A stretch of 64,000 bases of DNA from Candidatus Peregrinibacteria bacterium (GTDB lineage: Bacteria; Patescibacteriota; Gracilibacteria; UBA1369): contig PLYH01000003.1 in assembly GCA_003153355.1 (NCBI GenBank), positions 38,325 to 102,324 of the forward strand. The letters run 5' to 3'. Below are positions 19,916 through 43,518 of this stretch, in pieces. Position 1 is the stretch's first letter. Each line of letters opens with the position of its first letter. The notes beneath the pieces were generated by a model. That model saw only the letters and a program-made list of their open reading frames with translations. It was not told the origin of the DNA and did no database searches. The position numbers and the translations under genes are program-made.

Positions 19916-19932
19916 TTCTTCCTTCGATTCCT

Positions 19933-19961: not shown

Positions 19962-19966
19962 TTGTC

Positions 19967-20275
19967 TCAGTTTTCGAGTTTGGTGATGCGCTGTTCGTGG
20001 TTTTGCAATTTGGTATTTATCGGCTTTAGATAGTCAAAAATTTGACTGAAAAGCTTGTCATGTCCTTCAAGTTTTTCATCAATGTGACTAAAACGCTTTC
20101 TCACTTCCGCCTGAAAAACTGCGGCATCACCGGCAAGCTGGTCGATCATATTTCCGACCTCCAGACTCATTAAAACGAATCGTTCATCGATTTGCTCGAA
20201 GCGCTTGTCGATCATTTTGAATTTCGGATCAAGAGCTTCAACGATTTGCTGGAGATCTTTTTTTGTTAATGTCAT
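19967..20275 (-). CDS. hypothetical coiled-coil protein (102 aa)
   Basis: Clean ORF with heptad-like charged composition. I recognise no family. Confidence 0.45.
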   Translation of the reverse strand: MTLTKKDLQQIVEALDPKFKMIDKRFEQIDERFVLMSLEVGNMIDQLAGDAAVFQAEVRKRFSHIDEKLEGHDKLFSQIFDYLKPINTKLQNHEQRITKLEN

Positions 20276-20571
20276 AAATTCTATTCAATGATTATTACTG
20301 CCATTAAAACAAAAGAAAATGAAGGGTTTTTAAACTGAATCTTAAGTTTTCTTAAAATTCCGGGATGAGTTTTCAAAATAAACTTTTTTTCATGGGACTC
20401 AAGGTTTCTTTTGGAAAAAGTTTTGACGGTTTTGGTGTTCATGGAGTGATCTTTTTTGGGTCAAAAAATGTAGCCAAAAAACTATTTTATAAGCTGTCAA
20501 TTTGAACTTGACCGAAATAGAGGTTTTTTGATCTGCTGGCCGCTTTTTCGATCCTAAAAAATGTGTTTTTC

Positions 20572-20580
20572 TGCTAAAAT
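20572..20580 (+). promoter_or_regulatory. putative extended -10 element (TGCTAAAAT) upstream of the giant gene
   Basis: TGnTAAAAT lies 29 nt before ATG 20609, at the end of a 333-nt intergenic region. Confidence 0.3.
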
Positions 20581-20608
20581 ATAAAGAAATAAAAACAAAA
20601 CCTACGAG

Positions 20609-23600: not shown

Positions 23601-26600
23601 ATACCGCACTTACCATTGCAGGTTCGGCTGATCTTACCGATTCGTTCGCATGGAGAGACATGAATATCGATACAAAACATGCGTACGCTCTTTCCCATTA
23701 TTTATCCAATCTTGCGAGCTACAATCCTTATGCGGCTCCTGTTCCTTCCGGTTATGAAACAACCTACATCGTCAGCAAACCCGCTGAAGATCCGGTGACG
23801 AAACAAACGTCGGACGCGCTGGTGATGCGCTTTAACGGAAACTATCCGCAAAGCGAAGTTGATCCCGATTTCCAGGCGGGACAAAATCCTCCGACAACTC
23901 CGATAACGGGGCCCGGGGGCGGCGCTCCTTCAAACTCTTCCGGCGATTTTGGAAGTTTCTGCGGACAGTCCGGACCGAGCGTGATTATTTTTTCCTGGTT
24001 CTGCGCGATTACCGACTGGGTGAAACAAACAGCCAAACTCATGAGCGCAACGGTTTCGTTGCAGCCCGCTTGTACGATTCCTACCAGTTCCCTGAATGAT
24101 GCCCTTCCGGCTCCTTTACCATCAAATGATTTGGGCACAGGACCGAACGGCGAAGTGCAACCCGGCGGAACCGGAGGTCCGGACAAGACGACGAAATTTT
24201 TAATCAGCGCGAGTAAGGACGCCTTGAAAACGGGCTCCTCGGATACTCTTATTATTAATATTGAAGGAGTTTCCGGATCGAACGTTGTACAAACCGGCGA
24301 CAGCAAAACTCTTGTGGATTTGAATATTTCTCAAGTAAACGGCAAAGATATTGCAGTTCCGATTTCCACGCATCCGGCCCAGCTCCACAACGGAACCGCA
24401 AACATTACGCTGGAGTCAACCAGTGACGAAGGCGTGTTTACGGTCAAAGGCATCAGTCCTTCAACACCTTCGCTTGGTTCGAATACCTTAAGCATCGCTT
24501 CGACGAAAGGGTACATCAGCATTCTGACCTACACCAAAAACGGCAGTTTAAATCTGGGGCAGATTACCGGCGCAGGATTTATTATTAAAAATAAAGACGA
24601 TAAAATCGTTGCCGACGTTGACGGAACCACGGGCATGGTGACCATCACCGATTCCGGTTATCAGCTTATTGCGCTGCCTTCAAAAGCCGATAAGGCTGCG
24701 CGTCTTGGAGTGCAGGAAAAAGCGACCGGGACAGTTATTGCCAGCGTATTTTTCGTGGTGGATAAAACAAAGCCGGTGGTCCTTGATGACGAGACCATGG
24801 ACTATTTCGCAAAGTATAAAGATCTGACCGGCGTACATGTCCAGGATCTGAACATTGCCGATCCATACAGCGTTGAAACTGTCGGTGCGGACAATGTTTC
24901 AAATCCGAGCGGCGCTTATATTTACCTGAACCAGGGCACGAATAAAAAGAAAATCGGCATTGTGGATACGATGGGAAATATTTTCATCGATCCGTCGCTG
25001 GGCTTTCAAATGAAACCGGCCGCGACAAGTTCCAGCCCGGTGGTTTTCCAAATCACTGACGGAAGCGGCAAAGAACTTTTCAACGTTTATCTTGCGGCGA
25101 AATATCCGAAGATTCAGATTCTTGCGCCTTCCGGCGATTTCCAGGATTTCAATCTGATCGCTTTTGAAAACAACATGAAAGCAGCCGGCATGAGCACTAT
25201 TTCTCAGGGTGTCGGTTCGATGCTCAGCGGAAAACTTTTAGGTTATCTCGATTCGACCGTCGCTACGACCGCGCATGCGCAAGACGTTTCTTCCACCCAG
25301 AATTTTTCATCATCGCAGCAGGTCAAACATCAGATTCCTGATACGGATAACGACGGCCTGAACAACATGGATGAAATTATCTTGGGAACGGCTTACAAAA
25401 ATCCCGACACGAACGGTAACGGAACCAAAGACGGTCAGGATATTTTAAAAGGCATTGATCCGATCAAGCCCGGCAACGTTCCGATTTTTTCAGACATCAA
25501 TCCGTCAAGCGAGGGCTTTGCAGACATTATGAAATTGTACCGACGCGGCATATTACATGGTTATCCTGACGGTACGTTCAGACCCGATCGCGCGATCAGC
25601 CGCGAAGAGTTCACGAAGTTTGATCTCGGCAGCATTTGTATTCTCTGCGCGCACTTTAATGATGCGATCAAAAAAGCCGTGGACCTGATTTATCATCAGA
25701 GTCCGTTCCCTGATAAAAACATCACGTCTTCACTTCTGTACTGCGTGGAAGAGTCCAAGAACCGCAGTCTTATCAGCGGATACCAGGCCGGTCCGCAGAA
25801 AGGTTATTTTATTCCTCAGGCGAACATCACCCACGCAGAAGCCACAAAAGATCTTCTGGAAACGGCGCGGCAGCAAAATAATACTTCAATAAAATTTGTC
25901 GATCCTTCGGTGGGCGCAGGAAAACCGTGGTTCTATACATACGTTCTCACCGCGCAGCAGGAAAAACTTTTCCCGCCGGGAAGATTTTCGCAGCTCGACA
26001 CCATGGATCCGCAATCTTTCAAAGCGTGGTTCGACAATGAACTCAACAATCAGAACAGCACGTTCGTTGCGTGGCTTTACGCGGACATAACGCGTACGGA
26101 ATTCGCCATGATGACGTCGCGTCTTATTGATAAGGCCGACTGTTATCTGGACGATCAGGACGGCGACGGACTTCCTGATAATTATGAAAAATATGTTTTC
26201 GGAACAGATCCGACCAATCCTGATACTGATAAAGGCGGTGTGGATGACGGCACTGAAGTCGCAAACGGCATGAATCCCCTTGATCCTTCCGACGACGCAA
26301 AACTTCTGGACAGCGACGGTGACGGACTTTCCGATTACGATGAAATTCATGTGTATCATACCGATCCGCATAAAGCCGATACGGACGGTGGCGGCATTGA
26401 TGACGGCACTGAAGTGAAGAACGGAACAAATCCTCTGGATCCTAAGGACGATCATCTGTTTGACGGCGATCACGACGGCATGCCGGATGAATGGGAATTG
26501 AAAAACGGATTGAATCCGCATGATGCTTCGGACGCAAATAAAGATCCTGACGGAGACGGTCTTACGAATCTTCAGGAATATCAACACGGTACCGATCCGC

Positions 26601-29600
26601 ACAATCCTGATACGGACGGCGGCGGCGTGAATGACGGCGATGAAGTTCTGCGCGGCACCGATCCTTTGAATAAAGCTGATGATCACAAAATTTTGAAGGG
26701 CGATGAAGGCGGTTACATTGTCGGCGATAAAGTTTTCGACAATTATGTCTATGGCACTCCGAGCGATTCCGCGACCGTAGGCTCTGAAAGTTTGGATTAT
26801 ATTGATGACATTCCTGCAGACGGACAAACCAGTCTGGTCGTCCGCGCGGAAGTTAAGAACGGTAACGGAGATACTGATAAGACCACGGACGGAGAAACAA
26901 TGGAGTTCAAAACTTCCGAAAACAATACCGGACCTTACGCCGTTCTTAACCCGACGGCCGTAAAGGTGAAACAAGGCATCGCCGAAACGAACATTCAAGC
27001 AACGACTTTGGCCGGTGAATATATCGTTACGGCGGATCTTAAAGGTTTGCCTGTTCCCGCTGATGACCATTCGGTCTTTGTGACGCCGCTTGATCCTGCA
27101 AAAATCGTTATGGACGCGGACTCCCACACGCTCAAAAACGGCGGGCTTTCCAATACGATCATTCACGCCAAGCTTGAGGATGTGAACGGAAATTTAGCGA
27201 ATAATAATTCTTACCGCGCTTCATTTACGGTCGACGGTCCTGGAACTCTTGATGCTTCCAAAGATGAAGATCCGGCGACAGACGGAATTCAGATGACGAG
27301 CGTCACAGGAACGTATGATCTTATGCTCACAACAACAGCAGACCCCGGAGCCATTAAAATTCATGCGACCTATCTTCCGGACACCAGCCTGCTTGACGAC
27401 AGCGGAAGCACTCAACAGTCCGACACCCAACAGGCTGCCGCTTCAAGCGTCACGGGCGATATGACGATCCAGTCGCGCAGTGATTTGAAACTCCTCGTGA
27501 ATGCCGACAAATCCAGCATTCCTTCTGACTTCACCACAACGGACGTCCTTAATGTAAGCATTGTCGACGGCAGTAATAATCTGGTCAGCGACTTTGACGG
27601 GACGGCCAAATTCAACCTGGATAACACCTCACTCGGACAGCTTACCGCCGGTGCGGAGCAGGATGTTAAGAGCGGCATCAGTAAAGCGATCTTCCAGTCT
27701 TCAAATCATTCCGGAAGTGAAAATATTACGGTGACGGTCGCAGGATTTGATCCGGCAACGACCACCATCAAGACACTGCCGAAAGCAGCGAAAAAAATTA
27801 CCCTGGAAACTCCGCGCGCGACGATTGAAAACAATACCAGCTCTACGGCGGACATCGTCGCAAAGCTTTACGATACCGACGATAACTTTGCCTCCAACGA
27901 TTCTTCAACCTTCGTTACATTTAACCTCACGGACGATACGAAAGCTTACGGAACGTTTGACGGATCGACAACGGTTCAGGCGCAAAACGGCATCGCGAAA
28001 ATTACGATCCGAGGAACTTCGCAAAGCGGACCGCTCAACGTGGTGGCCAAAGGCACGAATCTTGTTACCGCTTCTGCGAGCCTTGAATCCGTCCAGCTTT
28101 TCCGCTCACAGGATCTTAAGAATGCATCGCCGCGCACACTTTTTGCGGCGCTCCTGGGAAGTGATTACGGAAATGTTTTTGATGAAAACTATTTTGGAGG
28201 TTGGTTTGTATTCAGCGGGACCACCGAAAGCGCCGTTTCATTATTGAGTGCGCCGAAGCCGAATTTACAACTCGCCAATGTTGACGCAAACGGCAAGGTT
28301 ACTGTTTTTGATACGAACTCTCTGGATTCGCGCGTGATTCCAGGCAATGCTCCGAACCTGCCGACACGCGTTGTTTTGACGAACCCGGACAGTTCCGAAG
28401 ATTTAGCCGAAGTATTTACCGTCTACAAACCTACATCGCAAACCAAAGCAACGATTCTTGATGCGAGCGGACAAGTTGATCCGACACAGGAAGGCATTTA
28501 TGTTCAAAGCATCGCAAAAAACACCGACTACTCAATCCAGCAAGTTTCTGATGGCGTAGCCATTTTGAAAAAAGGCAACGAAGCGGTCCATGTTTATAAC
28601 TCCGGTTCGATCAAGATTGTGGACAACAGTTTCCAGCTGCAGCTGGTTCAAAGCGATACGCAGCAATTTTTGACATTCAAAGTGACGGACAATTCCGAAG
28701 ATGTCGCCCAACTCACTGCAGTCGCAAATTTAAGTAATGATGTCGGACTCCTTGGTACGGACTTCAATTTTAACGGCACGGCAAGTTTAAAGAGCGGAAC
28801 CTATTTCCACATGCTCTCGGACAAAGACCAGTACCGCGGACAAGTGACGTTCTCCGGAGATTCTTCGGCCAACCCGCGCGGAATGGCTCTGACGGATATG
28901 ACCCAGAACATGCCAAAATCCCAGGCTCCGGGTTTCAGTTATATTTCTCTGGAAGCAAGTCCGGAGCAGGCCGGTATCGGCTACACCGGAGACAGTAAAT
29001 TTATGCTGCTTTTTGCGGCGGGAAATTCCGCTGGCGAATCCACTATGCCGTACTCTTCGGAAATCGGCGTGGTGCTTGGCGATCCGACGGTCCGTCTCAA
29101 TAATAAAATCAATGTTTCAAAAACCGGCTACACCAAAGATGTCGGTCAGGAAATTTATTTCGGCAGCGAAAATATTCAGGACATTACCCCGATGGATTAC
29201 AACGGTGACGGACTCACGGATCTGCTCGTCGCTTATACGGACGGAAGAGTCAGGCTGCTCCAGAATAACAAAGCCAATCCGCGTTTTGTAGATAAAGGAA
29301 TTCTGCTGGATTTTCCGAACGGCATCATCAGCATGACGACGGGTGACTTCAATCATGACGGACTGCAGGATCTGGTCGTCGCGACGAAGGACAGCTGTCG
29401 ACAGGGCGAAGTATGTATCAACGAATATGAAAATCATCACGGAAATTTTGTTTTGAAATATCTGCCGCTCCAGCCGTTCACGGATAAAAACCAAATTTCC
29501 ATGATACGTTCTGCAGACCTGAACGGAGACGGATATGATGATCTGATAACTTCGGATGATACGGGAGCGATCCGCGCGTTCTACAACAAGCACGGCGAAT

Positions 29601-32600
29601 TTGATACGAACGGCCAGTTTATCGGATCACTCGGACTTCATATTGATAACACCAAAAATCTGAAGACAGAAGTTCTGGTCGCCTACGACGGCATGCCCGT
29701 GAACGATCCGAATAAAACTGACGATGATCAATATTTTGTTGATCTTCAAGTCACCAAAAATCAATCCGATCTTACCGCTGCCGACAAAGCGAATCTGGGA
29801 ACCGACAGCAACGGAAATTCTCAGATTTTAAGTCCAGGCGACGCTGCCGGCCTTGCCGGGCTTCAAGGCGGTCCAGCGAAGATCACGCTGCCTCCTGCAA
29901 CCGTTCAGGTGCCCGAACCTTTTGTTTATCTTGATGCCGATCTTGATGTTTCCCATTCGCTCATCACTTCGGAAAAACGCGCAAAAGACGCAACAGAGCC
30001 TTACAATGTTCTGGCCGACAATGATACGGTCCAGTACAGCGTTATATTAAAAAATACTTCATCGCATGATCTGAACAATTTCATGTTCAGCGATATTGCT
30101 CCATCGAACATGACGCTGGACCAGACGACGATGCAATGCAGCGATTGCGGAAAATCAGACAATCTGAAATTTGATGCCACCGGCGAAAGCATGCGTCCTT
30201 ATATCGTTTCAGGATTTTCAATCCCTGCAGGTCAGACCAGAACATTTACCTACAGCGGAGTTGTGGGCAGCACGCCTCGCGTAAAAATCTTTACCGGCAA
30301 AAATCTGACGAAGAGTTTGCCAAGCAATGCGTTGCCGATGATCGGCGCTTCACCGGACAGAAATACCAGCGGACGCATGACCTACTATTATGCGACGTCC
30401 GTTGATCCTGTAACGCAATACGTCAATTACAGTTCCTTCACGACTCCTCCGTCTTCGCCGGCGCCGATCACTCCAGGCAATCCGCAGTTCCCGAATTTCC
30501 CAACCAGCAACGGCGACCTGGGATCAGTAAACAGCGACGGCGTTCCGAACAGCGTTGCCGGGTTTGAACAAGGCTTGATGAATAACGACAGTGACGGCGA
30601 CGGTTTGCCGAATCTTTATGATGATTTGAACGGAGGTTTAAATTCCATCGCAAACGCGACCCAAGGAATTCTTGCAGCATTATCCTGTTCTCAAGGATGT
30701 ATCCCGATGCCGCTTAACTTCGCGTTCCTGGCGCCGGGAGTCATTAATGCGCTTGGCATTCCTGTGGGTTTTGATCCCGGAACACCCATTTTCTGCTGGG
30801 GCGTACCTCCGCTGCTCTTTATCGGCGCGGGACCGATTTGTTACGGCTCATTAGCCGGAAGACTTTATCTGTCACCAACTTTAACGGCGAGTCTTGGCAT
30901 GGGAATCTGTCTCGGTCCATATCTGGCCGGACAATGTTTTGCCTTTAAATTACCGATCGACATGATTCCGTCAGGAATATGCGATGCCATCCAGTCGGGC
31001 ATTGATAATGCGATGTCATCTGCCAGCAGTGCCATTAATTCAGCCGGCAATTCAGGCATGATTCAAAGCGGCCAAAGCGCGGATTCAACCGGGCGAAGTA
31101 CCACAGGAGGCATGTCCGGCAGCACCAATTTAGGTAATTATTCTTACAGTGCAAGCGTGGGAACGAACTTTAGGATACCCAGCTTCCCCGCGGTTATTAC
31201 GAAGTGGCTTGAAGATCAGTCCAGTGAAATCGTGAATAAACTCACCGATCTTCCTGATTTCTATTTCATTTATCCGGATGTGAATTCAATCGCCGGAGCT
31301 TTTGTACCTCAAAAAGGCGCCAACCAGGGCGGCGGACAACCTCAGGCCGGTGTCCTGCAGTCACTGAATCCTACCGGACCAAGTCAGGGCGGCAATCAGG
31401 TTCCGAGTTTCAGTTCAAATCCGCTCGCGAGTGACCCGGCCAAGAGCGTCTTCAGAACCGTGCTCTCATCTCCGAGTAAAATTTTGAGTTATCTGAACAG
31501 CATTCCGCTCATTCAAATTCAGTCGCAGGAAGTGGCCATTAAGATTCCTGCTTTAACCGCGGCGGAAATCGCCAAACTGAAAGCTGATGCGCAGCAGTGG
31601 GTTGAAGATGAACGCAATGAAGTGAACCGCGCACTGCAGGTATGGAGTTGCGGTTATGAGCAGCTTGATCAAAACTGGACGCCTCAAAAATCCGGAACAA
31701 ACGGAACTCCAGGCGCTTCGGCTTCTCCATATCAAACGATGTGCGACAAACTGATCGTGGATATGAGCGCGCTTCGCAACAGCGTTGAAAAAAATCTTGA
31801 TGCTTTGCAAAAATATCTGGAACTTCCGCGCAAGATTCTGGCATGGAAAAATATCGCCGCGAAATATTTGTACCAGATCATCTGTTATCTGGATACAATC
31901 ATGCAGTACACCGGCGGTTATATCAAAAAACAAACCGTGCGCGTGCTGACGTGGATCGGCATGATCAAGAAAATCCGGCAGCTGCTGGAAACCTGGAAGC
32001 TGATCATCAGTCTTATCGTGGATTATCAGGCATCGTGTGACCGCTGCAGTTCATCGCGCTTTACGTTGCTTCAGCTGATTTTGCAGCTGTTTGCCGCCAT
32101 ACCGTCGCCGCCGATCATACCGTTCCCCAAACTGCCGGATATTTATCTGGACGTTTCTCAAATTCAAATCGGTCTGCATATTTTGTGGCCTGACATCAAA
32201 TTTATTCCGGAACGGATTCTGCTTCCAAAGATTCCGCGGATCACTTTGCCGGATCTTCCGACGCTTACGTTGCATCTGCCGGCAATTCCGATTCTTCCAG
32301 ATCCGCCTAATCTGCCGGAACTTCCTGATCTTCCGCCGTTACCGCTTCCGACCCTGCCGGATATTCCTCCTGCGCCCGCTGTTCCCGGACTTCCGGATCA
32401 AATCAAAGCGGTGATCGAAATTTTGAAAACTATCATTAAAATTATTTGTCTGATCCGCAAAGGTTTGATTCCGATTCCGGAATTGAATCTTAAATCTCAG
32501 ATTGAACAGCTAACCGAGCGTCCGCTTACTCCGCTTATTCCGCTGGATCTTGCGGCAATGCTGCAAATTCCGCCGATCAAATATCAGTACGTCGACCATA

Positions 32601-35600
32601 TAGAAATCAAAGCGATTTTAAATCTGCAGCTGGATTTCAGTCCTGTTTACGACTTTGTTCAGGGCATCGCCAACGTGTGGAACAATCTTTCGACGGATCT
32701 TGTGGAGAAACTGAACAAGTCGCTGCAAGATGCCGCTGCCGCTGCAAGTTCGGTCACTTCCGCTGCTACGGCGGGCGGAAATGCCGTGACCGGAGGCGGA
32801 GGAAATATTAACGTCGGAGGCAAATCCAGTGCAGTAATGCAATTACTCGCCCAGGTTCAATCGGCACAAACACAAGCAGGTCAAACGACCATCAGCCAGG
32901 ATGAAATTACCAAACTGTTCGCCGATAATTCACAGGCGCTTGTTGATGTGGCAAGCCTGGACGTTAACAAAGTTCCTCCGGCAAACCTCAACAAAATGCT
33001 CGCGGATCTTGAGAAGAACGATCCGATGCTCGGACATTATTTAGCCGAGTATCAACAGGCCGGAAAAGATCTTCAAAAGACCGTGGCCCAGTATGCCCAG
33101 CAAAATACGACGATTCAAAAAGATATTCATTTGGCCGCAACACAGCGTTATTTGAGCAAAGATGATCCTCTGCTCAACCAGCCGATCGACCAGATCAAGG
33201 CACGCATTTCGACTGAAGATAAACCTGAATATGACGGCCAGAAACAAGTTGCCCAGCTGCGCGATGCACTCATCGCATACACCGACGACAGCAGCCATCT
33301 GATGGATCAATTGGGAAATACTTCCGATCTGAATCAGACCGTAAGCATTCTCGCCCAGGCTCACAGTCTCAATGATTATCTGCCTCAGCCGGGACAGGAC
33401 AACAGCGGACCATTTTATGCTTCAGCTGCACAGAGTGATACAGCTGCGAACACTCCGGCTGTTGCAATGGCGAGTCTCGTGAACGATACGTTCCAGTCTT
33501 TTGCTGACGGCGTGAAGAAAGATTTAAATGATGAGCTGCCTTTGCTTGCTGATTCAGGTTTGCCTCCGGTTCCAACGACACCTGGTTCAAACGGACTTAC
33601 CGAACAGCCGAAAGGCATTTATATCTACAATGCTGATCTGGGCGTCAACGAGCGCCTGATTGAATACACTGACGAGGCCGATAGTCCGTCTCAACTTTTA
33701 TTCATGGATGTTTATAACAACGGCGTACAGGATGCCATCTACAGTTTTGGCGGAAATATTTACATGAAAGAAAACTATAACGCTCCGCGTACGAAAGTTT
33801 ATTACGGCGGAGTTCCGCAAACAAAAAATCTCATCGACTTAATTCCGGCAGCGCCGTCAGTGAACAGCTTCGTTTCAAATTATGTTAATAACAAGAGCGT
33901 TGATCTGAGCTGGAAAGCTCCGACCCAAAGCGATGTTTCCGGATACCAGATTATTTACAAACTGATGCCGGATGCTTTTGTGGAGAACATCAGTCCGATC
34001 ACTCACAAAATTGCCGTGATCGTTCAAGCAGCGGCTGCCACAGCAACACCTGCAACAGTTGTCGTGAACCAGGGAACGTATATGCTTGACGGCCAGAGTC
34101 CTCCAGATAACAAAGCGCCGTCGGGATCTTCCATTAATACGCAGGCAGGCAGTCAGATCACTCTTGATTACGGAGCTTCAGGAAAAATTACCGTTCCTGA
34201 AAATACGACTGTAAAAATTCCGGATATCACTTCTCCATATAACACTGCGCAAGACGTCAACGGAGATTTGTACTTTGACGGCACCAAGCGCACGATTGTT
34301 GTTCCAAACGCCAGCGGATTCAGCGTAACTCCAGGTGAAATCATTCACACCCTTAATCCTGCCAAGTTTACACTCAACGTGGCGGGTACTGCACAAGGGG
34401 AATACGATCTGCCGGTGAACACAGAATTTACCATTCCGACAGATATTCAAGATGCCATAAGCGTTTCTGTTTCTGACGGCGACATTGAAGTGATCGATCC
34501 TCAAACCATCGTCCAGCATCAAAAACTCATGAGCGGCCTGATGCTTGATTTTGATACGCCGATTACATCCGAAGGTGGCAGCGCGCGCGTCATGTTCGGC
34601 GACGGATCTTACGATTATATTGCCCAGGGCGAAGATCTGATGCTCAAGAAACTTGATACGCCGGATAAACCACAAGTTCATCTGGATATCACCAACGGTT
34701 TCTATTATGCGAAAATTCAATCGTTCGACCACCTGGGTTCATTAAGCACAAGCTCGGAAATGCAGCTGCTGGCTCCGTCGATCTGCGCCGATAAAGAACC
34801 GCCACTTCCGAACGGCGGACCTTCAGACCGCACAACGTACATCTTCAAGGCTCTGACGATCGATGCTTCAAAATCTTTTGATACCAACGGCAAAATTATT
34901 TCCTACTACATTGATACTGATCCGACCACAGACAGCGATCACGACGGCGATCCGACGGATGATAAGAATGTGTGCCACGACGCCGATGTAAACACCGACA
35001 CCGACGGTGACGGGATTCCGAACAATGATTGCAGCGATCCGGTCTTTAAACTCGGTCCGTATCAGGATCTTAATGACCGCAAAGTAGTGCTCAACGTGGT
35101 TGATGAATCTTTGAACCGGTCCCAGCAGCCGATCACCATTCATGTGGTGGTTCCGGGAATTTCACTTGATCAGGATGCCGCAACTTCAGGTGTGGCATCG
35201 GGCAATCTTGATGTCCAGGAAAGCGATATTCCGGTCGGCCTGATCCGTGACCGAGGCGGTGTTCTTACTCCGATTGCGACGAAGAGCGCCAATGACAAAG
35301 GCAAATATTTCACCGACGATCAGGGGAAATTTAAAGTCGGCGATATGAATTTGACCGACACGATCGTGATTAAAAACAGCAAAGGCGACATCATCGGTGA
35401 AATCGATCCGAAAACCGGCCGCATCATTTTGAAAGATCCTAATTACGAAATCGATGTTCTTCCGGCTGAAGCGCCGCTGCTGCCGACACGCGTAGTGGTC
35501 AAACAAAAGAGCGACGGAACAATTATTACCGCTCTCTTCCTGGTTCCGGATGTTAATACTGATACGACCATTGATGATCCAAACTTACCGTACAACAAAA

Positions 35601-37438
35601 ATACCACCGCCTTGTTTAAAGGCGCCCATATTAAAGATGATAATGGTTTTGACCAGTTCCAATTCAATAAGATCCCGACTAATGATCCAAGCTTCCCGGG
35701 TGGAACAGAAATTATTGATACAACAACTAAACAGAGAGCAGCTGTTCTTGATACCGGCGGCAATTTCTATCCTTATGACAGCCATTTGAGCCTTCAGCTT
35801 CAAGATACTTCCGACTTGAGTGATCCGCTCGTTATCGAAATACTTTATACAAAAGATGCTTCAACGCCTCCGGCAATTATCGGCGAGTTCAATATTGCCG
35901 TTCACAGCAATAAAGGCGTACAGATTTTATCTTCGGATAAATTCCAGACGTACACGGCACAAAATTCCCAACCGCTGCCTCAGCCGCCGAAGGTGCAGAC
36001 GATAGCGCCGGTTCCTGCGCTGCCTCAGCCGGCTCCGTTTAATGACGTGAACCCGACTACTCCGGATTACCAAAGCATCTTAAATCTTTACCAGAGACAT
36101 GTCCTTGATGATCTGCTGGGATCATCGGCCAATAAAGCTGCATTCGGCCCTGATGTTCCTCTGCTCCGTTCTGAATTTGCGGACATCATGCTGAAAATTT
36201 TCTGTATCGTTCCGAGAACGGAAGCTTACCAGTCGCCTCCTGCATTTACCGATATTCCATATGTTCAGGGAAACTTGCCTTGGTATTATGCCGTGACAAA
36301 AGAAGCTTATTTCCGCGGATTTATTACAGGATATAAAGCTGAAATTGATCCTACCACCGGTAAAACACCGTTCAAACCTGATGCAAATATCAGCAGAGCG
36401 GAAGCTGTCAAAATCATTCTTGAAGCTTTGCAGAAACAGGGCGTGATTGATATGGGACAAGTTCCGGTCGTTGCTCCTTACTATGCTCCGTATATCCAGA
36501 TTGCCCAGGATCTTACGCCTTACCTTAAAGAAAAGAGCCTTGTCAGCCAGCCTTATATTATTACGGCGGACGAAGCAACGAAGCCTGATGAGATTCTTAC
36601 AAGAAGCGAATTTATCGCCATGGCGGACCGTGTCCTCAAAGCTTACGACTGTTATACGGGCGGCAGCTCTTTCATCAACAGCATAACGCCGAATGTCGGA
36701 CCAAGTTCCGGCGGAACTGCAGTTACCATCAGCGGCGCTAATTTTTCACCGAATTCCACACTGACTTTCAACGGCGTTCCTGCCGATAATGTAAAAATTA
36801 TAAACTCAACAACAATCCAGGCTGATTCTCCTGCTCAATCCGGCCCCGGACCTGCGGATGTCGTTGTCACCAATCCAAATTCTGCGTCAACGGTGTTAAA
36901 AAATGGTTTCACGTATCAAGGTTGCAGTCCAAAAGTGAGCAGTATAACTCCGAATTCCGGACCGATGCCGGGAGGTACCGTCATAACCGTTAAGGGCTCC
37001 TGTTTCAATGATCAAACGGCACTTGATCTTCAATCAAAAGGTAATGGCTTACCTGCTCATGTGACGAAAGTTGTTGTTTTGAACAGTACGACGATCGTCG
37101 CAGAAACACCGCCTGATGTCACAGCTGGTCCGGCTGATCTGATTGCTACAAATCCTAACTTCCCGCCAGATACGTTTAACAATGGTTACACCTATACAAC
37201 ACCTCCGGCTGAAAATAATGTTGATCCTCGGCAAAACCTTGGCGAAGGCATCTATGTCATACAGCCGCAATGTAATGTATGTCCTTGTCCTTCAACCATC
37301 GATCACACCGCGGACATTATTCCAGGCGACAAACTTTTTGCGGTAATTTCCAATGACGACAATTCTCAAATCTTCAGCAAGAGTAACGTCGTTGAAATTA
37401 CCGCCATTCCCGAAACCCCTCCAGTAACCGCCGAATAA
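20609..37438 (+). CDS. giant secreted, SLH-anchored multidomain surface protein (5,609 aa)
   Basis: A single uninterrupted 16,830-nt ORF. Sec signal peptide (h-region [22 protein letters not shown]|AP). The modular content is listed as sub-features below. All antisense ORFs are short or repeat-driven. Confidence 0.92.
25485..26130 (+). other. first SLH (S-layer homology) triplet inside the giant protein
   Basis: [42 protein letters not shown] is a textbook SLH motif. Two further degenerate copies follow (FPDKNITSS...ISGY...ITHAEA and FVDPSVG...ITRTEFA). Confidence 0.7.
26150..26685 (+). repeat. array of thrombospondin type 3-like Ca-binding repeats (three roughly 60-aa super-repeats)
   Basis: Recurrent DxDGDGLxDxxE and TDPxxxDTDGGGxxDGxEVxxGTNPLDPxDD units. 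The similarity is also visible at DNA level. Confidence 0.8.
26800..28080 (+). other. four consecutive bacterial Ig-like (invasin/Big_1-type) domains
   Basis: Four roughly 95-aa units. Each starts with an ADG/SSxAD-type strand (for example [20 protein letters not shown]) and ends with a G.A...I.A......I.V.A pattern. Confidence 0.55.
29180..29600 (+). other. FG-GAP/VCBS-type repeats
   Basis: [38 protein letters not shown] and [23 protein letters not shown]. Confidence 0.7.
29995..30270 (+). other. DUF11-like (conserved repeat) beta-sandwich domain
   Basis: [32 protein letters not shown]...[15 protein letters not shown] resembles the DUF11 repeats of the gene at 61573..64000. Confidence 0.5.
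30668..31010 (+). other. Cys/Gly/Pro-rich hydrophobic module of unknown type
   Basis: [108 protein letters not shown]. Eight Cys in about 115 aa and almost no charged residues. Confidence 0.6.
31850..32590 (+). other. amphipathic/hydrophobic helices flanking a Leu-Pro repeat tract
   Basis: [14 protein letters not shown]...[11 protein letters not shown]...[13 protein letters not shown] comes first. A roughly 100-aa tract of (I/L)P-x-(L/I)P repeats follows ([59 protein letters not shown]). It ends with [18 protein letters not shown]. Confidence 0.6.
33846..34030 (+). other. possible fibronectin type III-like segment
   Basis: The pattern [24 protein letters not shown] is typical of FN3 strands B-C. 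Only part of the domain is recognisable. Confidence 0.35.
34780..35150 (+). other. PKD-like domain interrupted by TSP3-like Asp-rich loops
   Basis: [24 protein letters not shown]...[11 protein letters not shown]...[11 protein letters not shown]...[24 protein letters not shown]. Confidence 0.45.
36038..36650 (+). other. second SLH triplet inside the giant protein
   Basis: [23 protein letters not shown]...[10 protein letters not shown]; [30 protein letters not shown]...[11 protein letters not shown]; and a third copy ending [14 protein letters not shown]. Confidence 0.7.
36672..37200 (+). other. two IPT/TIG domains
   Basis: [34 protein letters not shown]...[11 protein letters not shown]...[10 protein letters not shown] and [21 protein letters not shown]...[11 protein letters not shown]...[10 protein letters not shown]. 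Confidence 0.75.
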
Positions 37439-37450
37439 TTCCGCAAAATA

Positions 37451-37459
37451 TGCTATAAT
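37451..37459 (+). promoter_or_regulatory. perfect extended -10 element (TGCTATAAT) 8 nt before the first cassette gene
   Basis: TGCTATAAT at 37451-37459 and ATG at 37468. No SD lies between them. It sits in the 29-nt gap after the giant gene stop. Confidence 0.4.
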
Positions 37460-37467
37460 AAAAAGAT

Positions 37468-38085
37468 ATGAAAAAGCTGATCCCACAATTCAAATTTAAG
37501 CCTCTCACCATGACGGTGATCCTGGCTATGGTGCTGTTTTTCGGAAACTCGCTCCGTCCGACCGAGGCTCAGGTTGCCGCACCTCCGGTTCCATATCCTG
37601 TTGCTCCGGCGGTTGGCGATACAACCGCAGCAAACAACGCCTGCGCTCCGGCAATGGCTGATTTTTCATCAAAACTGCTTGCTGATTTCCGGACATTTTT
37701 GGATACGAATTTCCAGAATAAAGCATCCACCTCGTCGTTGCTTGGAGTTGCCATGGCCAAATACACCCAGATGCGCGATCAACTCTATACGGCCTGGGGC
37801 CAATACTTTCCGAATCAGGGCGTTCCACTCGCCACCAGCGGCGTTCAGCCGGGACAATGTTTACAGATTGTGAACCAGACTCTTTCCGATGCCCAGATTC
37901 TTTTAAGAGACCACGCAGTTCGGACTTCGGGTGTGAAAAAATCCACGGCGCTGCTGGAAAAATATCAGCAGATTAACGCCGAGCTCGCCAATTTATACCA
38001 ACAGTTTGTTTATATGCAGGGATATTTGAATAGTTTTTCCAATAAACTGCCCTGCTACGTCAAAAAGAATTGCGTCAAAGGTTAA
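37468..38085 (+). CDS. secreted protein of unknown family (205 aa), cassette gene 1
   Basis: Signal peptide (TMTVILAMVLFFG...TEA|Q), helical Q/L-rich body, C-terminal CYVKKNC. Confidence 0.7.
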   Translation: MKKLIPQFKFKPLTMTVILAMVLFFGNSLRPTEAQVAAPPVPYPVAPAVGDTTAANNACAPAMADFSSKLLADFRTFLDTNFQNKASTSSLLGVAMAKYTQMRDQLYTAWGQYFPNQGVPLATSGVQPGQCLQIVNQTLSDAQILLRDHAVRTSGVKKSTALLEKYQQINAELANLYQQFVYMQGYLNSFSNKLPCYVKKNCVKG

Positions 38086-38086
38086 T

Positions 38087-38929
38087 ATGAAAAAATATCT
38101 TCCTACAATCAGTCTGTTTGTTCTGGGAATACTCCTCGTCTCGATGAGTGCGATGGTGTTTACCTCTAAAGCACAACAAGCGAATCTGAAAAACCCCTAT
38201 GATTCAGGAACTTTAGGCGTGGACGATATTATCGATACCTATAACAACAACATCAACAAGGCGTTCAACAACTACATCAAACTGATGATGACGAATATGC
38301 AGACGAATCCCGATGATCCGAACGGCAAGCCTTTTCATGCCGACGGAACTCCATTCAGTGTTTCCGACTGCTTTAACAGTCCTCAGAACTACAGCACGTT
38401 TTGCGTGGCCGCTAATTTGCTGGGAGGCAATTCGGATGATTGCCCAGCTGTAACGAAGGATAAAACGACTCCGCTTTCCGAAGGCATGGACGCCTTCTGC
38501 CAACTCGGCGGTAATGCTCTGCCTTTGCAGGGATATATGAATTTCATCGCGGCTTTAAAAAAGCGCACACAAAATATTTTCGATACGCAGGCTGATCAGC
38601 AGTGCTTTATTTCAAAGGTTCCGGTCGCCGGTCCGGTTGTCGGAAAATCTTTGTGTTCCACATCAGCATTTTTTGGTTCAATTCCTCTCATCAATCAAAT
38701 CGTAAAAAGAAAAACCGATATCAATCAGGCCATGGATACTGCAAAAAAAGCTCTGGACCAGACTCTTTCCGCGTATGATCAATTGAAAATCGCATGGCCC
38801 ATTCATTTGAAGTACATAAAAATTTATGCCGATCTGGAAAAATACCGCGACAAGATTGTGGACATCCGCCACCAGACGGACATCTTCCCGAAGAAATTTA
38901 TCGATCTTACCACCACGGCCTGCACCTAA
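38087..38929 (+). CDS. secreted Cys-rich protein of unknown family (280 aa), cassette gene 2
   Basis: Signal peptide (ISLFVLGILLVSMSAMVFTSKA|Q), 8 Cys in the mature part, ends ...TTTACT. The start is 2 nt after the previous stop. Confidence 0.7.
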   Translation: MKKYLPTISLFVLGILLVSMSAMVFTSKAQQANLKNPYDSGTLGVDDIIDTYNNNINKAFNNYIKLMMTNMQTNPDDPNGKPFHADGTPFSVSDCFNSPQNYSTFCVAANLLGGNSDDCPAVTKDKTTPLSEGMDAFCQLGGNALPLQGYMNFIAALKKRTQNIFDTQADQQCFISKVPVAGPVVGKSLCSTSAFFGSIPLINQIVKRKTDINQAMDTAKKALDQTLSAYDQLKIAWPIHLKYIKIYADLEKYRDKIVDIRHQTDIFPKKFIDLTTTACT

Positions 38930-38933
38930 ACCT

Positions 38934-40775
38934 ATGATGAAAAAATTTCTCTACACGATAGGCTTTCTGATGTTTTCCTCTGCACTGTTCAGTCCACTGA
39001 TCAGCGGTACGGCTTTGGGCCAAAGTACGGGAAATGCCGGGAAGGGTGTCGTTGATAATTCCACCTGGGTTGCACCGGCCCTCCAGCTTAATATTCCCGA
39101 TAAAGACTGGTCGGCAACTTTCGGTGAAACCGATCCGACACAGGTCGGGCAGGATCTTTATACAATGGTTTACAACAAAATGAACGTTGCTCCGTCTCAA
39201 AAGGCTTTTAAAGACACGACCGGCGCTTATGGAGCGACGCAGTCTGACATGGTGCGGCTTCTGAATAATGATTTTAGTCCGATTCTGGCCAAAAGTCCTT
39301 ATCTGACCCAGGCTCAGGCCATCAAAAAAATGCAGGAAATTCAGCAGCACTATCAGCAGGACATGGCTGTGCAGTCCGTTCAGGCCGATATTGATGCCGA
39401 AGTCACTCCCAATGAAATTTTCGAGAACGGCGATACGTCCGATTCGGGTTTTGATCTGATTAACGATCTCAATAATATTGAAAATATTCTTTTCAAAAAA
39501 ATGGACCCGATCGATGTCGGCGGGAATTTCAACGGCAGCTCCAGCGGCGGCAGCGGAACAACCGGCGGCGGTGCGAACAATTCAAGCACAAACGGCCCGG
39601 CCTCGACCTCTTCCGGATCTACGTCTGGCGGCGGCACCACCACCGGTTCAACATCAAGTCCTCTGACCGGGAGCGGAAGTCAGCAAGTGACCGGCACTCA
39701 ACCCGGTGGAACTCAGGAAGTTTCAACTTCCGGAATAGGACCCGCACCAAGTGCAGCCGATAATCCAAATATCTGTTTCGGCAACCAGCAGCTTAATCAA
39801 GCTCTTGATGCTTTTAACACTCAGCAGTCTTCTGATCCCCGTTTTAAAGAAACGCCGACGGTAACTCCGCCAGCGCCGGCGCCTGCGCCTGCACCGGCAC
39901 CATCGCCGTCACCATCACCAAGTCCGGGTCCATCACCGTCACCGACTCCTTCACCAAGTCCGAGTCCGACGCCACAACCTGCTCCTACTCCGCCTCCTCC
40001 ATTTACCTATAATCCCCCATCTACTCCGGCGGTTCAACCGGCCCCTGCAGCCAACTGGCTGCAAGCGCCTCCTTGCGGCCAGGTCATGTGCATACAGGTA
40101 AATTTTGTTATGACAACCGCTTCGGCCTACACCGATTCGGACAACTGCATCGCCTGCCATATTGAAAAAATCAACGAAAAACTCAAAGCGACCATTAACC
40201 ACAGTCTGATTCCCGGCAAAGCAACGGGAAATCTGATCGAACCCGGAATCTGTAAATCAGCTACCGCAGATCTGATCGGATCACTGAATATGCGTTTCTT
40301 TGCGATTTCCAAACCTGTAAAAACGCCGATCAACGATGATCTCATTTACGGCACCAACACCGTCGATGAATGGAATAAATTCCTCACGACCTATAAACCT
40401 TTCCCTTTTTACTCGATGAATGTTCCTGATCCAAAGAACAAAACCCAGGATACATTCATTCCAACGGTTCCGGACAGTGCGGCGAAAGCGGCCGTTATGT
40501 ATTCAACTCCTGACACCACTCTTGGACAAATCAGTGCCGGCATCCAACAGCAGATTACGGCTACGGCGAATCATGTCGCACAGGCGGCCACGGTTTATGA
40601 CGCTTCGATCAAAACGGATTCCGACAGCAGTTTCCTCCAGTCCATCCAGAAGGAACTTGACCAAATGAACTACTACTTTGACAGTTTCCAGAATATTCTC
40701 GCAAGCATTAACTCGACCTCCAGCGATAACCCCGGAGCCTGCCAAACCCTTGCCACTAAAAATGATTGCTCATAA
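38934..40775 (+). CDS. secreted protein of unknown family with G/S/T-rich and Pro-rich linkers (613 aa from ATG 38934), cassette gene 3
   Basis: MMKKFLYTIGFLMFSSALFSPLISGTALG|Q signal peptide begins at 38934. The ORF-track start 38826 overlaps the previous gene and encodes an R/T-rich non-signal stretch. C-terminal ACQTLATKNDCS. Confidence 0.7.
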   Translation: MMKKFLYTIGFLMFSSALFSPLISGTALGQSTGNAGKGVVDNSTWVAPALQLNIPDKDWSATFGETDPTQVGQDLYTMVYNKMNVAPSQKAFKDTTGAYGATQSDMVRLLNNDFSPILAKSPYLTQAQAIKKMQEIQQHYQQDMAVQSVQADIDAEVTPNEIFENGDTSDSGFDLINDLNNIENILFKKMDPIDVGGNFNGSSSGGSGTTGGGANNSSTNGPASTSSGSTSGGGTTTGSTSSPLTGSGSQQVTGTQPGGTQEVSTSGIGPAPSAADNPNICFGNQQLNQALDAFNTQQSSDPRFKETPTVTPPAPAPAPAPAPSPSPSPSPGPSPSPTPSPSPSPTPQPAPTPPPPFTYNPPSTPAVQPAPAANWLQAPPCGQVMCIQVNFVMTTASAYTDSDNCIACHIEKINEKLKATINHSLIPGKATGNLIEPGICKSATADLIGSLNMRFFAISKPVKTPINDDLIYGTNTVDEWNKFLTTYKPFPFYSMNVPDPKNKTQDTFIPTVPDSAAKAAVMYSTPDTTLGQISAGIQQQITATANHVAQAATVYDASIKTDSDSSFLQSIQKELDQMNYYFDSFQNILASINSTSSDNPGACQTLATKNDCS

Positions 40776-40778
40776 TAT

Positions 40779-41861
40779 ATGAAACACTTACGAAACCTTA
40801 CAATTGGGATGATGATTGCGGTCATGACAGTGACCCAGGTAGCTTTTGCCCAAACCGGAGATGCTTCCGGCAACGGCGGCGCAGTCGTTTGCCGCAACGG
40901 CGCCAGAGATTATGGCACTTTCCTTTCCTCGGTCATCAGCTACAACGGCTTTACCGAGTACTGGAAAGACATTATCGTCCGCTATAATCACAATATGTGT
41001 CTGTTTCTGGACATTGATAATCTTCTGAACCGGATTGATAAAACGCGTCAGCAGATCCGCAATGCCTTTTATACCTGCGACGCCAGCGCTCCGAAACTGC
41101 GTACTTTATATTATCAGCTTGAGGCCGAGCTTTTCTTTTTGCGCGATTATGTGGATTTTGATGATGACGGCAACATTATTTTCAAATCGCAAAACGTTAT
41201 CACGTCGGATTTCACCGATTACACCGTCAGTAAGATGAATTTCTTTTCCCCGGCAGATGCGCAAACTCTTTTGCAGACGCTCTTTGGCAAATATAACGCA
41301 AAAAAGGATGCGTACTTGAATTGCGCTGATCCGACGTGGGGCAATTTGATCCAGAAATGGAATGAGTTCAAGTCATCACTTGGCGGATTCACCGCGATTC
41401 AAGATGCCGCCGAAACGATCAGTAAACGCTGGGACGATGCGGTCAATACGCCTTTCAAGCGCACAGGAGGTTTGTTCGGAGGATTGCTCGATACCAAAAT
41501 CAACGGGCTTGATCCTGCAACGGCCTGGGGCGACATTTCCGCTGAACTCCAGAGAAATGCCATTTCTACGGTCCCGGTTTCTTCGGGTCAGATTGCAGCA
41601 GCAACTCAACAGGGCACATTAGGTTTTTCTTACGATAAATTTTTGCAAACTGCGGCTTCAGACGCCAGTCTTCATGATCAGGAACTTGAACGCACCCAAT
41701 TTTTAGCTCAGTACGGTCAAACTTACCAGCAAAGCTCCGCCAATATCGCACAAGCGATCATCGACAAAGTGAATGCCCTTGATACATCAATCCAGGCTAC
41801 TTTCCCATTAATTACTCAAACTTCCCAATGCGCCAAAACTGTTAACGGCAGGGTTTGCTAG
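40779..41861 (+). CDS. secreted protein of unknown family (360 aa), cassette gene 4
   Basis: Signal peptide (LTIGMMIAVMTVTQVAFA|Q), helical body, C-terminal QCAKTVNGRVC. The start is 3 nt after the previous stop. Confidence 0.7.
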   Translation: MKHLRNLTIGMMIAVMTVTQVAFAQTGDASGNGGAVVCRNGARDYGTFLSSVISYNGFTEYWKDIIVRYNHNMCLFLDIDNLLNRIDKTRQQIRNAFYTCDASAPKLRTLYYQLEAELFFLRDYVDFDDDGNIIFKSQNVITSDFTDYTVSKMNFFSPADAQTLLQTLFGKYNAKKDAYLNCADPTWGNLIQKWNEFKSSLGGFTAIQDAAETISKRWDDAVNTPFKRTGGLFGGLLDTKINGLDPATAWGDISAELQRNAISTVPVSSGQIAAATQQGTLGFSYDKFLQTAASDASLHDQELERTQFLAQYGQTYQQSSANIAQAIIDKVNALDTSIQATFPLITQTSQCAKTVNGRVC

Positions 41862-41885: not shown

Positions 41886-41920
41886 AAAAAATCCCCAACG
41901 CAACGGTTGGGGATTTTTTG
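41886..41920 (+). terminator. rho-independent terminator closing the giant-gene/cassette unit
   Basis: 9-bp stem ATCCCCAAC / GTTGGGGAT followed by TTTTTTG. Confidence 0.8.
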
Positions 41921-42204: not shown

Positions 42205-42669
42205 CTAGTCGAGGATGTAATGATCCATTTCGTCGGTGCGACTTTGATTAGGGGTTCCTTGTTGTTCTTTTTTTTTGCTTATAATAGATGGAACGAAACT
42301 TTCTTTTTCAGGTTCTGGAATGGTTTCTTCTGCCTCCAGGAGATTTTCATCTGTCACTCCGGCTTCCTTTACCTTTTTTGATCCTTTCTTTGGTATCTTT
42401 GATGATTTTAATTCGGTTGGTGGTGCCAAGTGATTCTTGTCCGGTGCGTTTGGCATATCTGCTTCCTTAGGAGTAGTCCTATTCGACTTACTCACAGCAG
42501 CAGCCTCCTGCTCGTCCAGGAATTTGTTGACGTCACTTTCGCGAATTCTGTATACCCTTCCAAGCCTGCTTGCCCTCAATTTGCCTTGTTTTATAAACTT
42601 CAAGACAGTGAAGGGGTGTACCTGCAGAATTTGTGCAACTTGGTCAGGTGTAAGGATCTTTTCGTCCAT
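42205..42669 (-). CDS. excisionase-family (MerR-like) helix-turn-helix DNA-binding protein with K/E-rich tail
   Basis: ILTPDQVAQILQVHPFTVLKFIKQGKLRASRLGRVYRIRESDVNKFL matches the excisionase-type HTH pattern (...L.V...TV...I..G.L.A...GR.YRI...D...FL). Confidence 0.75.
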   Translation of the reverse strand: MDEKILTPDQVAQILQVHPFTVLKFIKQGKLRASRLGRVYRIRESDVNKFLDEQEAAAVSKSNRTTPKEADMPNAPDKNHLAPPTELKSSKIPKKGSKKVKEAGVTDENLLEAEETIPEPEKESFVPSIISKKKEQQGTPNQSRTDEMDHYILD

Positions 42670-43152: not shown

Positions 43153-43518
43153 TTATTTTTGTTCCTCTTTTTCAAGACACTGTAAGAGCTTTTTACTGCA
43201 TTGATAATCTAGAGCAGGCATATATGCTATAAGACCTCTGTCAAATTCTTGTCTGGATTTGTCTCCTTTATCCGAATCCAACCCTATTTTCATTGATAGG
43301 AGGCGACTTTCCTCTGTACATTGTCTTACTTCGGGAGTTTGGACACATTCATCATGGACAGCATCTCCAACACGTTCAGTAATTTGGTGAATTTTATCAG
43401 TTGCTTCTATAAATTCCGAATCAGCGTACTGAGTGGGAACTTTTGGTTCCTGAGAACAACCATTTATTCCTGAAACTAAACCAGCAATGACTATTGCTTT
43501 AGAAAGAGAGTTGTTCAT
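43153..43518 (-). CDS. lipoprotein (121 aa) with four additional Cys
   Basis: MNNSLSKAIVIAGLVSGING|C lipobox. Confidence 0.6.
   Translation of the reverse strand: MNNSLSKAIVIAGLVSGINGCSQEPKVPTQYADSEFIEATDKIHQITERVGDAVHDECVQTPEVRQCTEESRLLSMKIGLDSDKGDKSRQEFDRGLIAYMPALDYQCSKKLLQCLEKEEQK

Follow-up and report, generated by a model that had tools for sequence, protein, structure and literature searches.

What do four consecutive genes for secreted proteins of no recognizable family, each with cysteine close to its C terminus, do directly behind the gene of a giant surface protein? The question is raised by a stretch of 64,000 nucleotides (hereafter, the window) of contig PLYH01000003.1 (assembly GCA_003153355.1, positions 38,325–102,324) from a Candidatus Peregrinibacteria bacterium. 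The genome belongs to the Peregrinibacteria/Peribacteria (Patescibacteria), is approximately 1–1.5 Mb in size, and uses the standard genetic code. Patescibacteria, or candidate phyla radiation (CPR) bacteria, account for much of bacterial diversity, and the majority are believed to live on other cells, yet almost nothing is known about the molecular components of the surfaces by which they attach. The original prediction for this DNA had described the four genes, g1–g4, as a cassette encoding proteins of 205, 280, 613, and 360 amino acids (aa) separated by 1, 4, and 3 nt, and these values proved exact upon re-checking of the coordinates.

Cysteine tails and their co-variation

The four proteins carry a Sec signal peptide with a basic n-region, a hydrophobic core of 13 to 18 residues, and a small-x-small site followed by Gln at +1 (TEA↓Q, SKA↓Q, ALG↓Q, and AFA↓Q), as had been proposed; signal peptides and cleavage sites were assigned by the −3/−1 rule only. 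The C-terminal tails, which match the sequences quoted earlier, contain two cysteines in g1 (Cx5C), g3, and g4 (both Cx8C), in each case right after the strongest heptad-like segment, and a single penultimate cysteine, C279, in g2, where the conserved tail reads FPxKFIDxTTTxC. The chains stop 0 to 3 residues past the last cysteine. The helical segment that the original prediction placed ahead of the tails is borne out by models of g2 and g4 and by the hydrophobic periodicity of all four families: within the analyzed C-terminal region, the 3.5-residue periodicity peaks in the ~35 residues that immediately precede the tail. For g2, the AlphaFold2 model based on the family alignment (predicted local distance difference test score, pLDDT, of 80) has a 69-residue helix (residues 198–266) leading into the tail. 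The corresponding model of g4 (mean pLDDT of 60) has a confident helical domain at residues ~60 to 190 and a 72-residue terminal helix (residues 285–356) of low confidence. All four share one architecture: behind the signal peptide comes a helical body and then a terminal amphipathic helix, which passes through a Pro turn (aromatic-Pro in g2 and g4) into the cysteine tail.

A set of 22 genome loci, along with several assembly contigs, supplied orthologues of the four proteins with 24 to 66% identity to the window. The terminal cysteines are conserved throughout this range, and all tail cysteines are invariant in the 16 genomes with a full canonical cassette (the window and 15 others). The additional conserved-looking cysteines previously noted in g2–g4 are likewise invariant in orthologues. 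The complete sets comprise four invariant cysteines in g1 (59, 131, 196, and 202), three in g2 (95, 106, and 279), eight in g3 (281, 381, 386, 405, 408, 440, 603, and 612), and six in g4 (38, 74, 100, 182, 351, and 360). Cysteine accounts for 0.81% of the residues of the window proteins, and 5 of 32 other proteins have one within their last 20 residues; the invariance of the tail cysteines across orthologues rules out chance as the source of the tails.

The g4 family provides an internal control for the interpretation of cysteine losses. Among its 141 sequences, C74 and C182 are always lost jointly, in 16 cases, usually with two replacement cysteines elsewhere (e.g., P0202 and P0221), as expected of a relocated intrachain disulfide; paired loss therefore marks bonded cysteines in this family. 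As for the tail, C351 alone is lost in 31 of the 141 sequences, with the terminal C360 kept, C360 alone is lost in two, and both are lost in five. The neighborhoods of these g4 variants were retrieved, and the tails of the partner proteins were aligned (Table 1). The partial locus L035, a single 1.8-kb contig from a metagenome scan, agrees with the pattern without tail cysteines.

Table 1. Presence (+) or absence (−) of the seven tail cysteines in cassette loci
Loci	g1 C196	g1 C202	g3 C603	g3 C612	g4 C351	g4 C360	g2 C279
Canonical (window and 15 genomes)	+	+	+	+	+	+	+
L028	−	+	+	−	+	+	+
L032, L033, L034	−	+	−	−	−	+	+
L037	−	−	+	−	+	−	+
L029, L036 (partial L035)	−	−	−	−	−	−	+

Three inter-protein pairs are never discordant: g1 C196/g3 C612, g1 C202/g4 C360, and g3 C603/g4 C351. 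The six tail sites of g1, g3, and g4 allow 15 perfect matchings, and exactly one of these, which joins the three proteins in a ring, has zero discordances over the five configurations; the next best have four. The intra-protein tail pairs, by comparison, are discordant in two to three of the six configuration rows compared. The number of tail cysteines summed over the three proteins is always even (6, 4, 2, 2, and 0), although a single protein may carry just one. The g2 cysteine, C279, is kept in every locus, even where all six others are gone. Internal cysteines of all four proteins are retained in every noncanonical locus of Table 1, and the conserved cysteines of the giant protein remain in the lineages that lost tail cysteines, except for the pair 3681/3712 in some; disulfides have therefore not been given up across the board. 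L034 stands apart from L032 and L033 in the g4 tree, the clade without tail cysteines lies beside the L034 clade, and there are further isolated branches lacking C351; this placement indicates several independent losses, perhaps four to six, rather than one.

The original prediction had compared the Cx5–8C pairs with the disulfide-bonded C-terminal loop of pilins. If the tails formed independent intrachain loops of this kind, similar to the pilin D-region, the four proteins would not need to touch. Two cysteines spaced 5 to 8 residues apart, as in canonical g1, g3, and g4, are typical of small loops, and a type IV pilus operon does lie upstream. Nevertheless, we consider this explanation unlikely. 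Single tail cysteines occur in several lineages of g1, g3, and g4, always in two proteins together, such that each is matched by a single cysteine in another cassette protein. The all-intrachain matching produces eight discordances, the highest value (tied with seven other matchings), versus none for the inter-protein matching. Moreover, retention of the terminal cysteine alone in 31 of the 141 g4 relatives is at odds with a loop, a second tail cysteine is never present in g2, and g1–g4 have no prepilin signal.

The tails had also been suggested to be a common docking or oxidation signal. The docking part of this suggestion points in the right direction, whereas an oxidation signal read by one enzyme is not supported, because the losses take out specific pairs. 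More generally, the tails could be a shared tag for a single processing, oxidation, or attachment enzyme, for example, one that attaches the proteins covalently to the giant protein or the wall, and the layout of signal peptide, helical body, Pro or aromatic-Pro turn, and cysteine tail in all four proteins is compatible with this. Loss of such an enzyme, however, predicts an all-or-none pattern, as opposed to the three different partial patterns that respect the pairs, and the g2 cysteine outlasts all other tail cysteines. Known C-terminal sorting signals, which comprise a motif, a transmembrane helix, and a basic tail, would not fit into tails this short, and searches for such signals (LPXTG/sortase, PEP-CTERM, MYXO-CTERM, and GlyGly-CTERM) revealed neither a motif nor a C-terminal hydrophobic helix in g1–g4. 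In the loci with flanks examined, there is no conserved enzyme gene adjoining the cassette. We regard a shared tag, with g1–g4 as independent cargo or effectors linked only by co-regulation, as highly improbable.

A putative disulfide-locked complex

Based on the co-variation, it is likely that the tails of g1, g3, and g4 are adjacent in one hetero-complex. In the arrangement that we propose, the terminal amphipathic helices would hold g1–g4 together as a single hetero-oligomer, with the chains parallel and the tails meeting at one end; parallel packing is most likely because the tails are C-termini that come right after amphipathic helices. In the canonical state, including the window, a ring of interchain disulfides would connect g1 C196 with g3 C612, g1 C202 with g4 C360, and g3 C603 with g4 C351, disulfides being the simplest chemistry for the paired tail cysteines. 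The lone g2 C279 would form a link to a partner outside the ring, since it persists when all other tail cysteines are gone; this partner could be a second g2 or a cysteine of the giant protein, for example, in its C-terminal CxxCPC motif. The total number of cysteines in g2 is odd (3, 5, or 7) in every orthologue with a full mature sequence that could be counted, and two apparent even-count exceptions are N-terminally truncated sequences.

Such a complex would serve the giant SLH-anchored protein as an accessory module of fixed stoichiometry, be it a stalk, a cap, or an anchor. We lean, with mild conviction, toward a hetero-oligomer with a ring of three interchain disulfides that acts as this accessory module. 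The most specific version, namely a hetero-tetrameric parallel helical bundle with a three-disulfide ring and a covalent g2 C279 tether to the giant adhesin or to a second bundle, which would be part of a bacterial surface organelle not known before and, with the giant adhesin, make up the host-attachment apparatus of Peregrinibacteria, is a tentative proposal that we think doubtful in its entirety. By analogy, the giant protein itself is presumed to mediate attachment to other cells, as giant surface proteins of CPR bacteria are presumed to do (PMC4736985, PMC8080830).

Several points weigh against this proposal. The co-variation sample consists of 10 noncanonical loci, with the perhaps four to six independent losses mentioned above. 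The same patterns could result from ancestral intrachain loops followed by rescue of one orphan cysteine by another; as this route also needs adjacent tails, the hetero-complex is more robust than the specific ring. Gene linkage is the one line of evidence that suggests the accessory role, and the giant protein of the window has an even number of cysteines (40), which does not in itself require one further partner. The main open reading frames (ORFs) of at least 120 aa in the window include no gene for DsbA, VKOR, or a thioredoxin-like protein. The organisms are anaerobic fermenters, in which extracellular disulfides are not readily accounted for, although Anantharaman et al. 2016 (PMC4736985) report that Peribacter genomes encode one disulfide-formation protein.

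The paired cysteines could, furthermore, bridge a metal rather than form disulfides. In this alternative, the tails would still meet in a hetero-complex, with the cysteines holding a metal ion, a cluster, or another cofactor. Co-occurrence between proteins reveals functional pairs and not their chemistry, seven clustered thiols are a plausible metal site, and an anaerobic lifestyle combined with the lack of an encoded oxidoreductase within the window would be in keeping with such a site. On the other hand, the losses occur strictly in twos, and any pair may persist alone (L032–L034 and L037), which fits three two-cysteine links better than a shared site with three or four ligands. The tails contain no conserved His, Asp, or Glu, and Peribacteria are reported to have many Cys-rich extracellular proteins in addition to the single disulfide-formation protein (PMC4736985). 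Metal bridging therefore seems improbable to us, and we retain the ring of interchain disulfides as the preferred chemistry.

The giant protein (5609 aa) combines an N-terminal signal/anchor with SLH, TSP3, Big/Invasin, FG-GAP, and TIG domains. Its core (~aa 3360–3947) is highly conserved and rich in Gly, Pro, and Cys, with invariant cysteines at positions 3434, 3443, 3458, 3759, 3810, 3813, and 3947, and every lineage shares the C-terminal CxxCPC motif (aa 5555/5558/5560) without change. The pair 3681/3712 is missing or displaced in some lineages; this is the only variation seen among the conserved giant-protein cysteines, and there is no co-variation between them and the tail cysteines. Similarity between g1–g4 and the giant protein was not detected using hmmsearch, and a seeming CxQxxCI similarity of g3 to the core of the giant protein did not hold up. 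Other features of the giant protein are a Pro-rich stretch of LPxxP repeats (~aa 3860–3930), a conserved (I/Y)(F/Y)SKSN ending, and an odd count of 15 universally invariant cysteines in the final ~2250 aa.

Relationships of the four proteins

The four proteins had been called orphans, and database searches confirm this status. Against Pfam-A, NCBIfam, PHROGs, and PADLOC, g1–g4 gave no match above the curated thresholds, only sub-threshold noise; profile searches with the four family alignments against PDB sequences gave no match; and Foldseek searches with the g4 and g2 models against PDB and BFVD reached a best E-value of about 0.5. The three-helix-bundle fold of VirB5/CagL, helical minor pilus proteins of type IV secretion systems, was also considered: CagL appeared for g2 only, at a Foldseek E-value of 6.4 and a TM score of 0.13, and no Pfam match supported it. 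A literature search retrieved no description of the cassette. We regard g1–g4 as four new lineage-specific protein families.

Distant paralogy of the four proteins, as originally suggested, was not supported. All-against-all BLASTP gave no match, and HHalign comparisons of the family alignments without signal peptides gave probabilities of 25% for g1–g2, over 68 helical columns, and at most 12% for every other pair. The g1–g2 value is 85% with signal peptides included and is regarded as a signal-peptide artifact because it falls to 25% once these are removed. The weak matches all align C-terminal helices, a point in favor of highly diverged paralogues, and the C-terminal helix-plus-tail module may have a very remote common origin. 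In the models, however, g2 and g4 show different arrangements of secondary structure.

A related idea casts g1–g4 as minor type IV pilus subunits: they would form a complex at the tip or for priming, comparable to minor pilins plus PilY1, and the giant protein would stand in for PilY1. The gene order of pilus operon, giant FG-GAP (β-propeller) protein, and four small proteins would fit, and in Omnitrophota, giant genes are likewise preceded by loci resembling type II secretion system (T2SS) or type IV pilus (T4P) loci, according to West-Roberts et al. 2023 (bioRxiv 10.1101/2023.11.21.568195). The adjacency of pilus operon and giant gene is known from this window alone. As the original prediction had it, none of the four proteins has a prepilin signal: their signal peptides are ordinary, with A-x-A-type sites, rather than class III, and none of the four matched N_methyl, TIGR02532, or any other pilin model, whereas the prepilin encoded in the upstream operon matches both of the named models. 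With a strong terminator also separating the pilus operon from the giant gene, and HHalign values no higher than 25%, we consider pilus subunits or diverged paralogues very improbable indeed. The cassette proteins resemble type IV pilins in being small exported proteins with two cysteines near the C terminus that are encoded near pilus genes; they differ in that the signal of pilins is of class III, with a G↓F-x-x-x-E cleavage/methylation motif ahead of a hydrophobic α1 helix, and the pilin loop is intrachain, while the cassette cysteines co-vary between proteins.

The closest parallels to the proposed complex are found elsewhere. In fibrinogen (Aα/Bβ/γ), disulfide rings delimit a three-chain coiled coil (PMC5741905). 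The likeness lies in three different chains with two closely spaced cysteines each at the end of a helical bundle, and the co-variation map of g1, g3, and g4 has the same ring topology, with bonds that are deduced from sequences here. In the cassette, the spacing is Cx5–8C instead of the Cx3C of fibrinogen, the ring would be at the C-terminal end only, there is a fourth chain (g2) with a single cysteine, and the source is bacterial (CPR). Homology to fibrinogen is not indicated, as neither profile searches against PDB nor Foldseek gave a sequence or fold match. Laminin α/β/γ is an extracellular heteromeric parallel coiled coil with a C-terminal β–γ interchain disulfide and differing N-terminal domains. 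The proposed cassette complex would also be parallel, heteromeric, and stapled by disulfides near the C termini; this is an analogy only, since laminin is eukaryotic, is unrelated in sequence, and has far longer coiled coils. The top Foldseek matches of g2 were Sso2 and syntaxins, at nonsignificant scores (E-value of about 1, TM score <0.2). SNARE complexes, which are parallel four-helix bundles, resemble the proposed bundle architecturally, and only by analogy, in that several proteins each contribute one long C-terminal helix, but SNARE bundles are cytosolic and free of disulfides. The proposed locking mechanism has eukaryotic analogues, and no bacterial precedent was found.

In a wider setting, the locus resembles giant-gene loci of Omnitrophota and CPR bacteria, in which a giant multidomain surface protein is encoded beside a T2SS/T4P-like locus (West-Roberts et al. 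2023, bioRxiv 10.1101/2023.11.21.568195) in an ultrasmall, probably host-dependent bacterium. Large Cys-rich extracellular proteins are reported from Peribacteria (Anantharaman et al. 2016, PMC4736985). The accessible parts of these two papers and of Moreira et al. 2021 (PMC8080830) describe neither a four-gene secreted cassette nor inter-protein cysteine co-variation. Comparative genomics alone yields a testable quaternary prediction, consisting of three named cysteine pairs and one free linker cysteine. If the prediction holds, bacteria would provide an uncommon example of a hetero-oligomer locked by disulfides in the manner of fibrinogen or laminin, and genomes by themselves would have disclosed the quaternary disulfide map of a complex not yet observed by anyone. 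Antibodies, pull-downs, and landmarks in cryo-electron tomography for the giant proteins of uncultivated bacteria could then build on it. If it fails, what is left is four new families, clearly delimited as a set and linked to giant adhesins.

As for the domain structure of g3, this protein is composed of an N-terminal domain, a Pro/Ser/Gly-rich linker (~aa 230–375), and a Cys-rich C-terminal domain (C381, C386, C405-x2-C408-H409, and C440). The element C405-x2-C408-H409 (window 40146–40160, DNCIACH) combines an invariant CxxC with a nearly invariant His and is formally a CXXCH haem-c motif. Haem binding seems unlikely because the His is not invariant, being replaced by Thr in L002 and L003; in addition, there was no cytochrome match in Pfam. 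The CxxC could be a structural disulfide or a redox-active motif that helps form the tail disulfides. In the metagenome-assembled genome (MAG) Dive96_bin3.358 (L003/L020, 8460–10001), g3 is present as two ORFs, one for the N-terminal domain and linker (279 aa) and one for the Cys-rich C-terminal domain (211–229 aa), which suggests separable modules or a frameshift. In another MAG, STL-PAT5 (L023), the giant gene and the cassette seem to be broken into short ORFs, reflecting pseudogenization or assembly errors.

Conservation and genomic setting

A profile search of 1.84 billion cluster representatives showed 271 g4 clusters at 50% identity with E ≤ 1e-3, of which 137 had E ≤ 1e-30. The matches are nearly all full-length (340–430 aa), and those with a name are without exception assigned to Peregrinibacteria, "Gracilibacteria," or unclassified Patescibacteria. 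More than 30 Peregrinibacteria loci preserve the order giant gene-g1-g2-g3-g4-HTH_17, with identities as low as ~24% and remote g4 relatives among them. The order of g1–g4 is unchanged in all loci, and a giant gene encoding ~4800 to 6000 aa directly precedes g1 in every locus with enough upstream DNA. The five-gene unit of giant gene and g1–g4 is strictly conserved throughout this class-level lineage, and the four cassette proteins are specific to Peregrinibacteria/Peribacteria.

Where this flank is covered (the window, L002–L004, and L028–L037), the convergent HTH_17 gene almost always adjoins the cassette, and it is kept although the genes beyond it vary (uvrA, a CHASE2 guanylate cyclase, or an MscS channel). 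In the window, uvrA lies beyond it, on the strand opposite to the cassette. The HTH_17 gene appears to be a conserved partner of the giant-gene operon and is possibly its regulator. The copy in the window has an unusually long charged C-terminal extension (154 aa versus 56–105 aa elsewhere).

The coordinates of the locus are collected in Table 2. The longest ORF for g3 begins at 38826, as compared with the start at 38934 in the original prediction; the latter is favored because the N termini of orthologues read MKKxLYxIGF. A terminator scan, from which the interior of the giant gene was left out, revealed only weak 5- to 6-bp matches within the cassette (37300–41861 scanned), at a rate not exceeding that in shuffled sequence. 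Since strong terminators flank the region and only weak matches occur inside the cassette, the giant gene and g1–g4 appear to be co-transcribed as one unit. They are probably also translationally coupled, and in some relatives g1–g4 even overlap each other.

Table 2. Features of the giant-gene operon and its surroundings (window positions)
Feature	Position	Strand	Details
Type IV pilus operon	14333–19915		upstream of giant-gene operon
PilM/N-like gene of pilus operon	14333–15991		
227-aa gene of pilus operon			between PilM/N-like gene and T2SSE
T2SSE ATPase of pilus operon	16727–17983		
T2SSF platform gene of pilus operon	18011–19297		
Prepilin gene of pilus operon	19319–19915		matches N_methyl and TIGR02532
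Strong terminator-like hairpin	19933–19957	+	3′ of pilin gene; divides pilus operon from giant-gene operon
Giant gene	20609–37438	+	5609-aa surface protein; operon gene 1
g1	37468–38085	+	205 aa; signal peptide 37468–37569; amphipathic C-terminal helix ~37936–38046; C196 38053–38055; C202 38071–38073
g2	38087–38929	+	280 aa; signal peptide 38087–38173; helix aa 198–266 (38678–38884); C279 38921–38923
g3	38934–40775	+	613 aa; signal peptide 38934–39020; amphipathic helix ~40605–40730; C603 40740–40742; C612 40767–40769
g4	40779–41861	+	360 aa; signal peptide 40779–40850; amphipathic C-terminal helix ~41712–41816; C351 41829–41831; C360 41856–41858
Intrinsic-terminator-like hairpin	41886–41919	+	14-bp stem, then T-rich tract; closes unit of giant gene and g1–g4
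HTH_17 gene	42205–42669	−	excisionase/MerR-like small DNA-binding protein; convergent with g4; candidate regulator

A noncoding gap of 690 nt (19916–20608) separates the terminator of the pilin gene from the giant gene. It contains a weak promoter-like site (20329–20358) and no Rfam match, and the control region of the 21-kb giant-gene operon presumably sits there. Rfam and tRNA scans of the window were both empty.

Farther from the cassette, Pfam gave no match at E ≤ 0.001 for two large ORFs on the minus strand (2199–5288, 1029 aa, and 55543–57705, 720 aa). The same strand carries a second group of surface genes at positions 58004 to 63993. This group encodes two SLH-domain proteins (58004–59002 and 59014–60057), a secreted orphan of 463 aa (60185–61576), and a DUF11-repeat protein (61573–63993) that nearly reaches the end of the window; this cluster agrees with the surface-rich proteome described for Peribacteria. 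Closer to g4, the minus strand at 43153–43518 encodes a putative lipoprotein of 121 aa with a lipobox-like GINGC motif, five cysteines, and a Cx6C tail of its own (YQCSKKLLQCLEKEEQK). Its gene lies in an AT-rich stretch (42–44 kb; GC content of 0.37 versus ~0.47 elsewhere), is absent from related loci such as L004, and may be a recent insertion.

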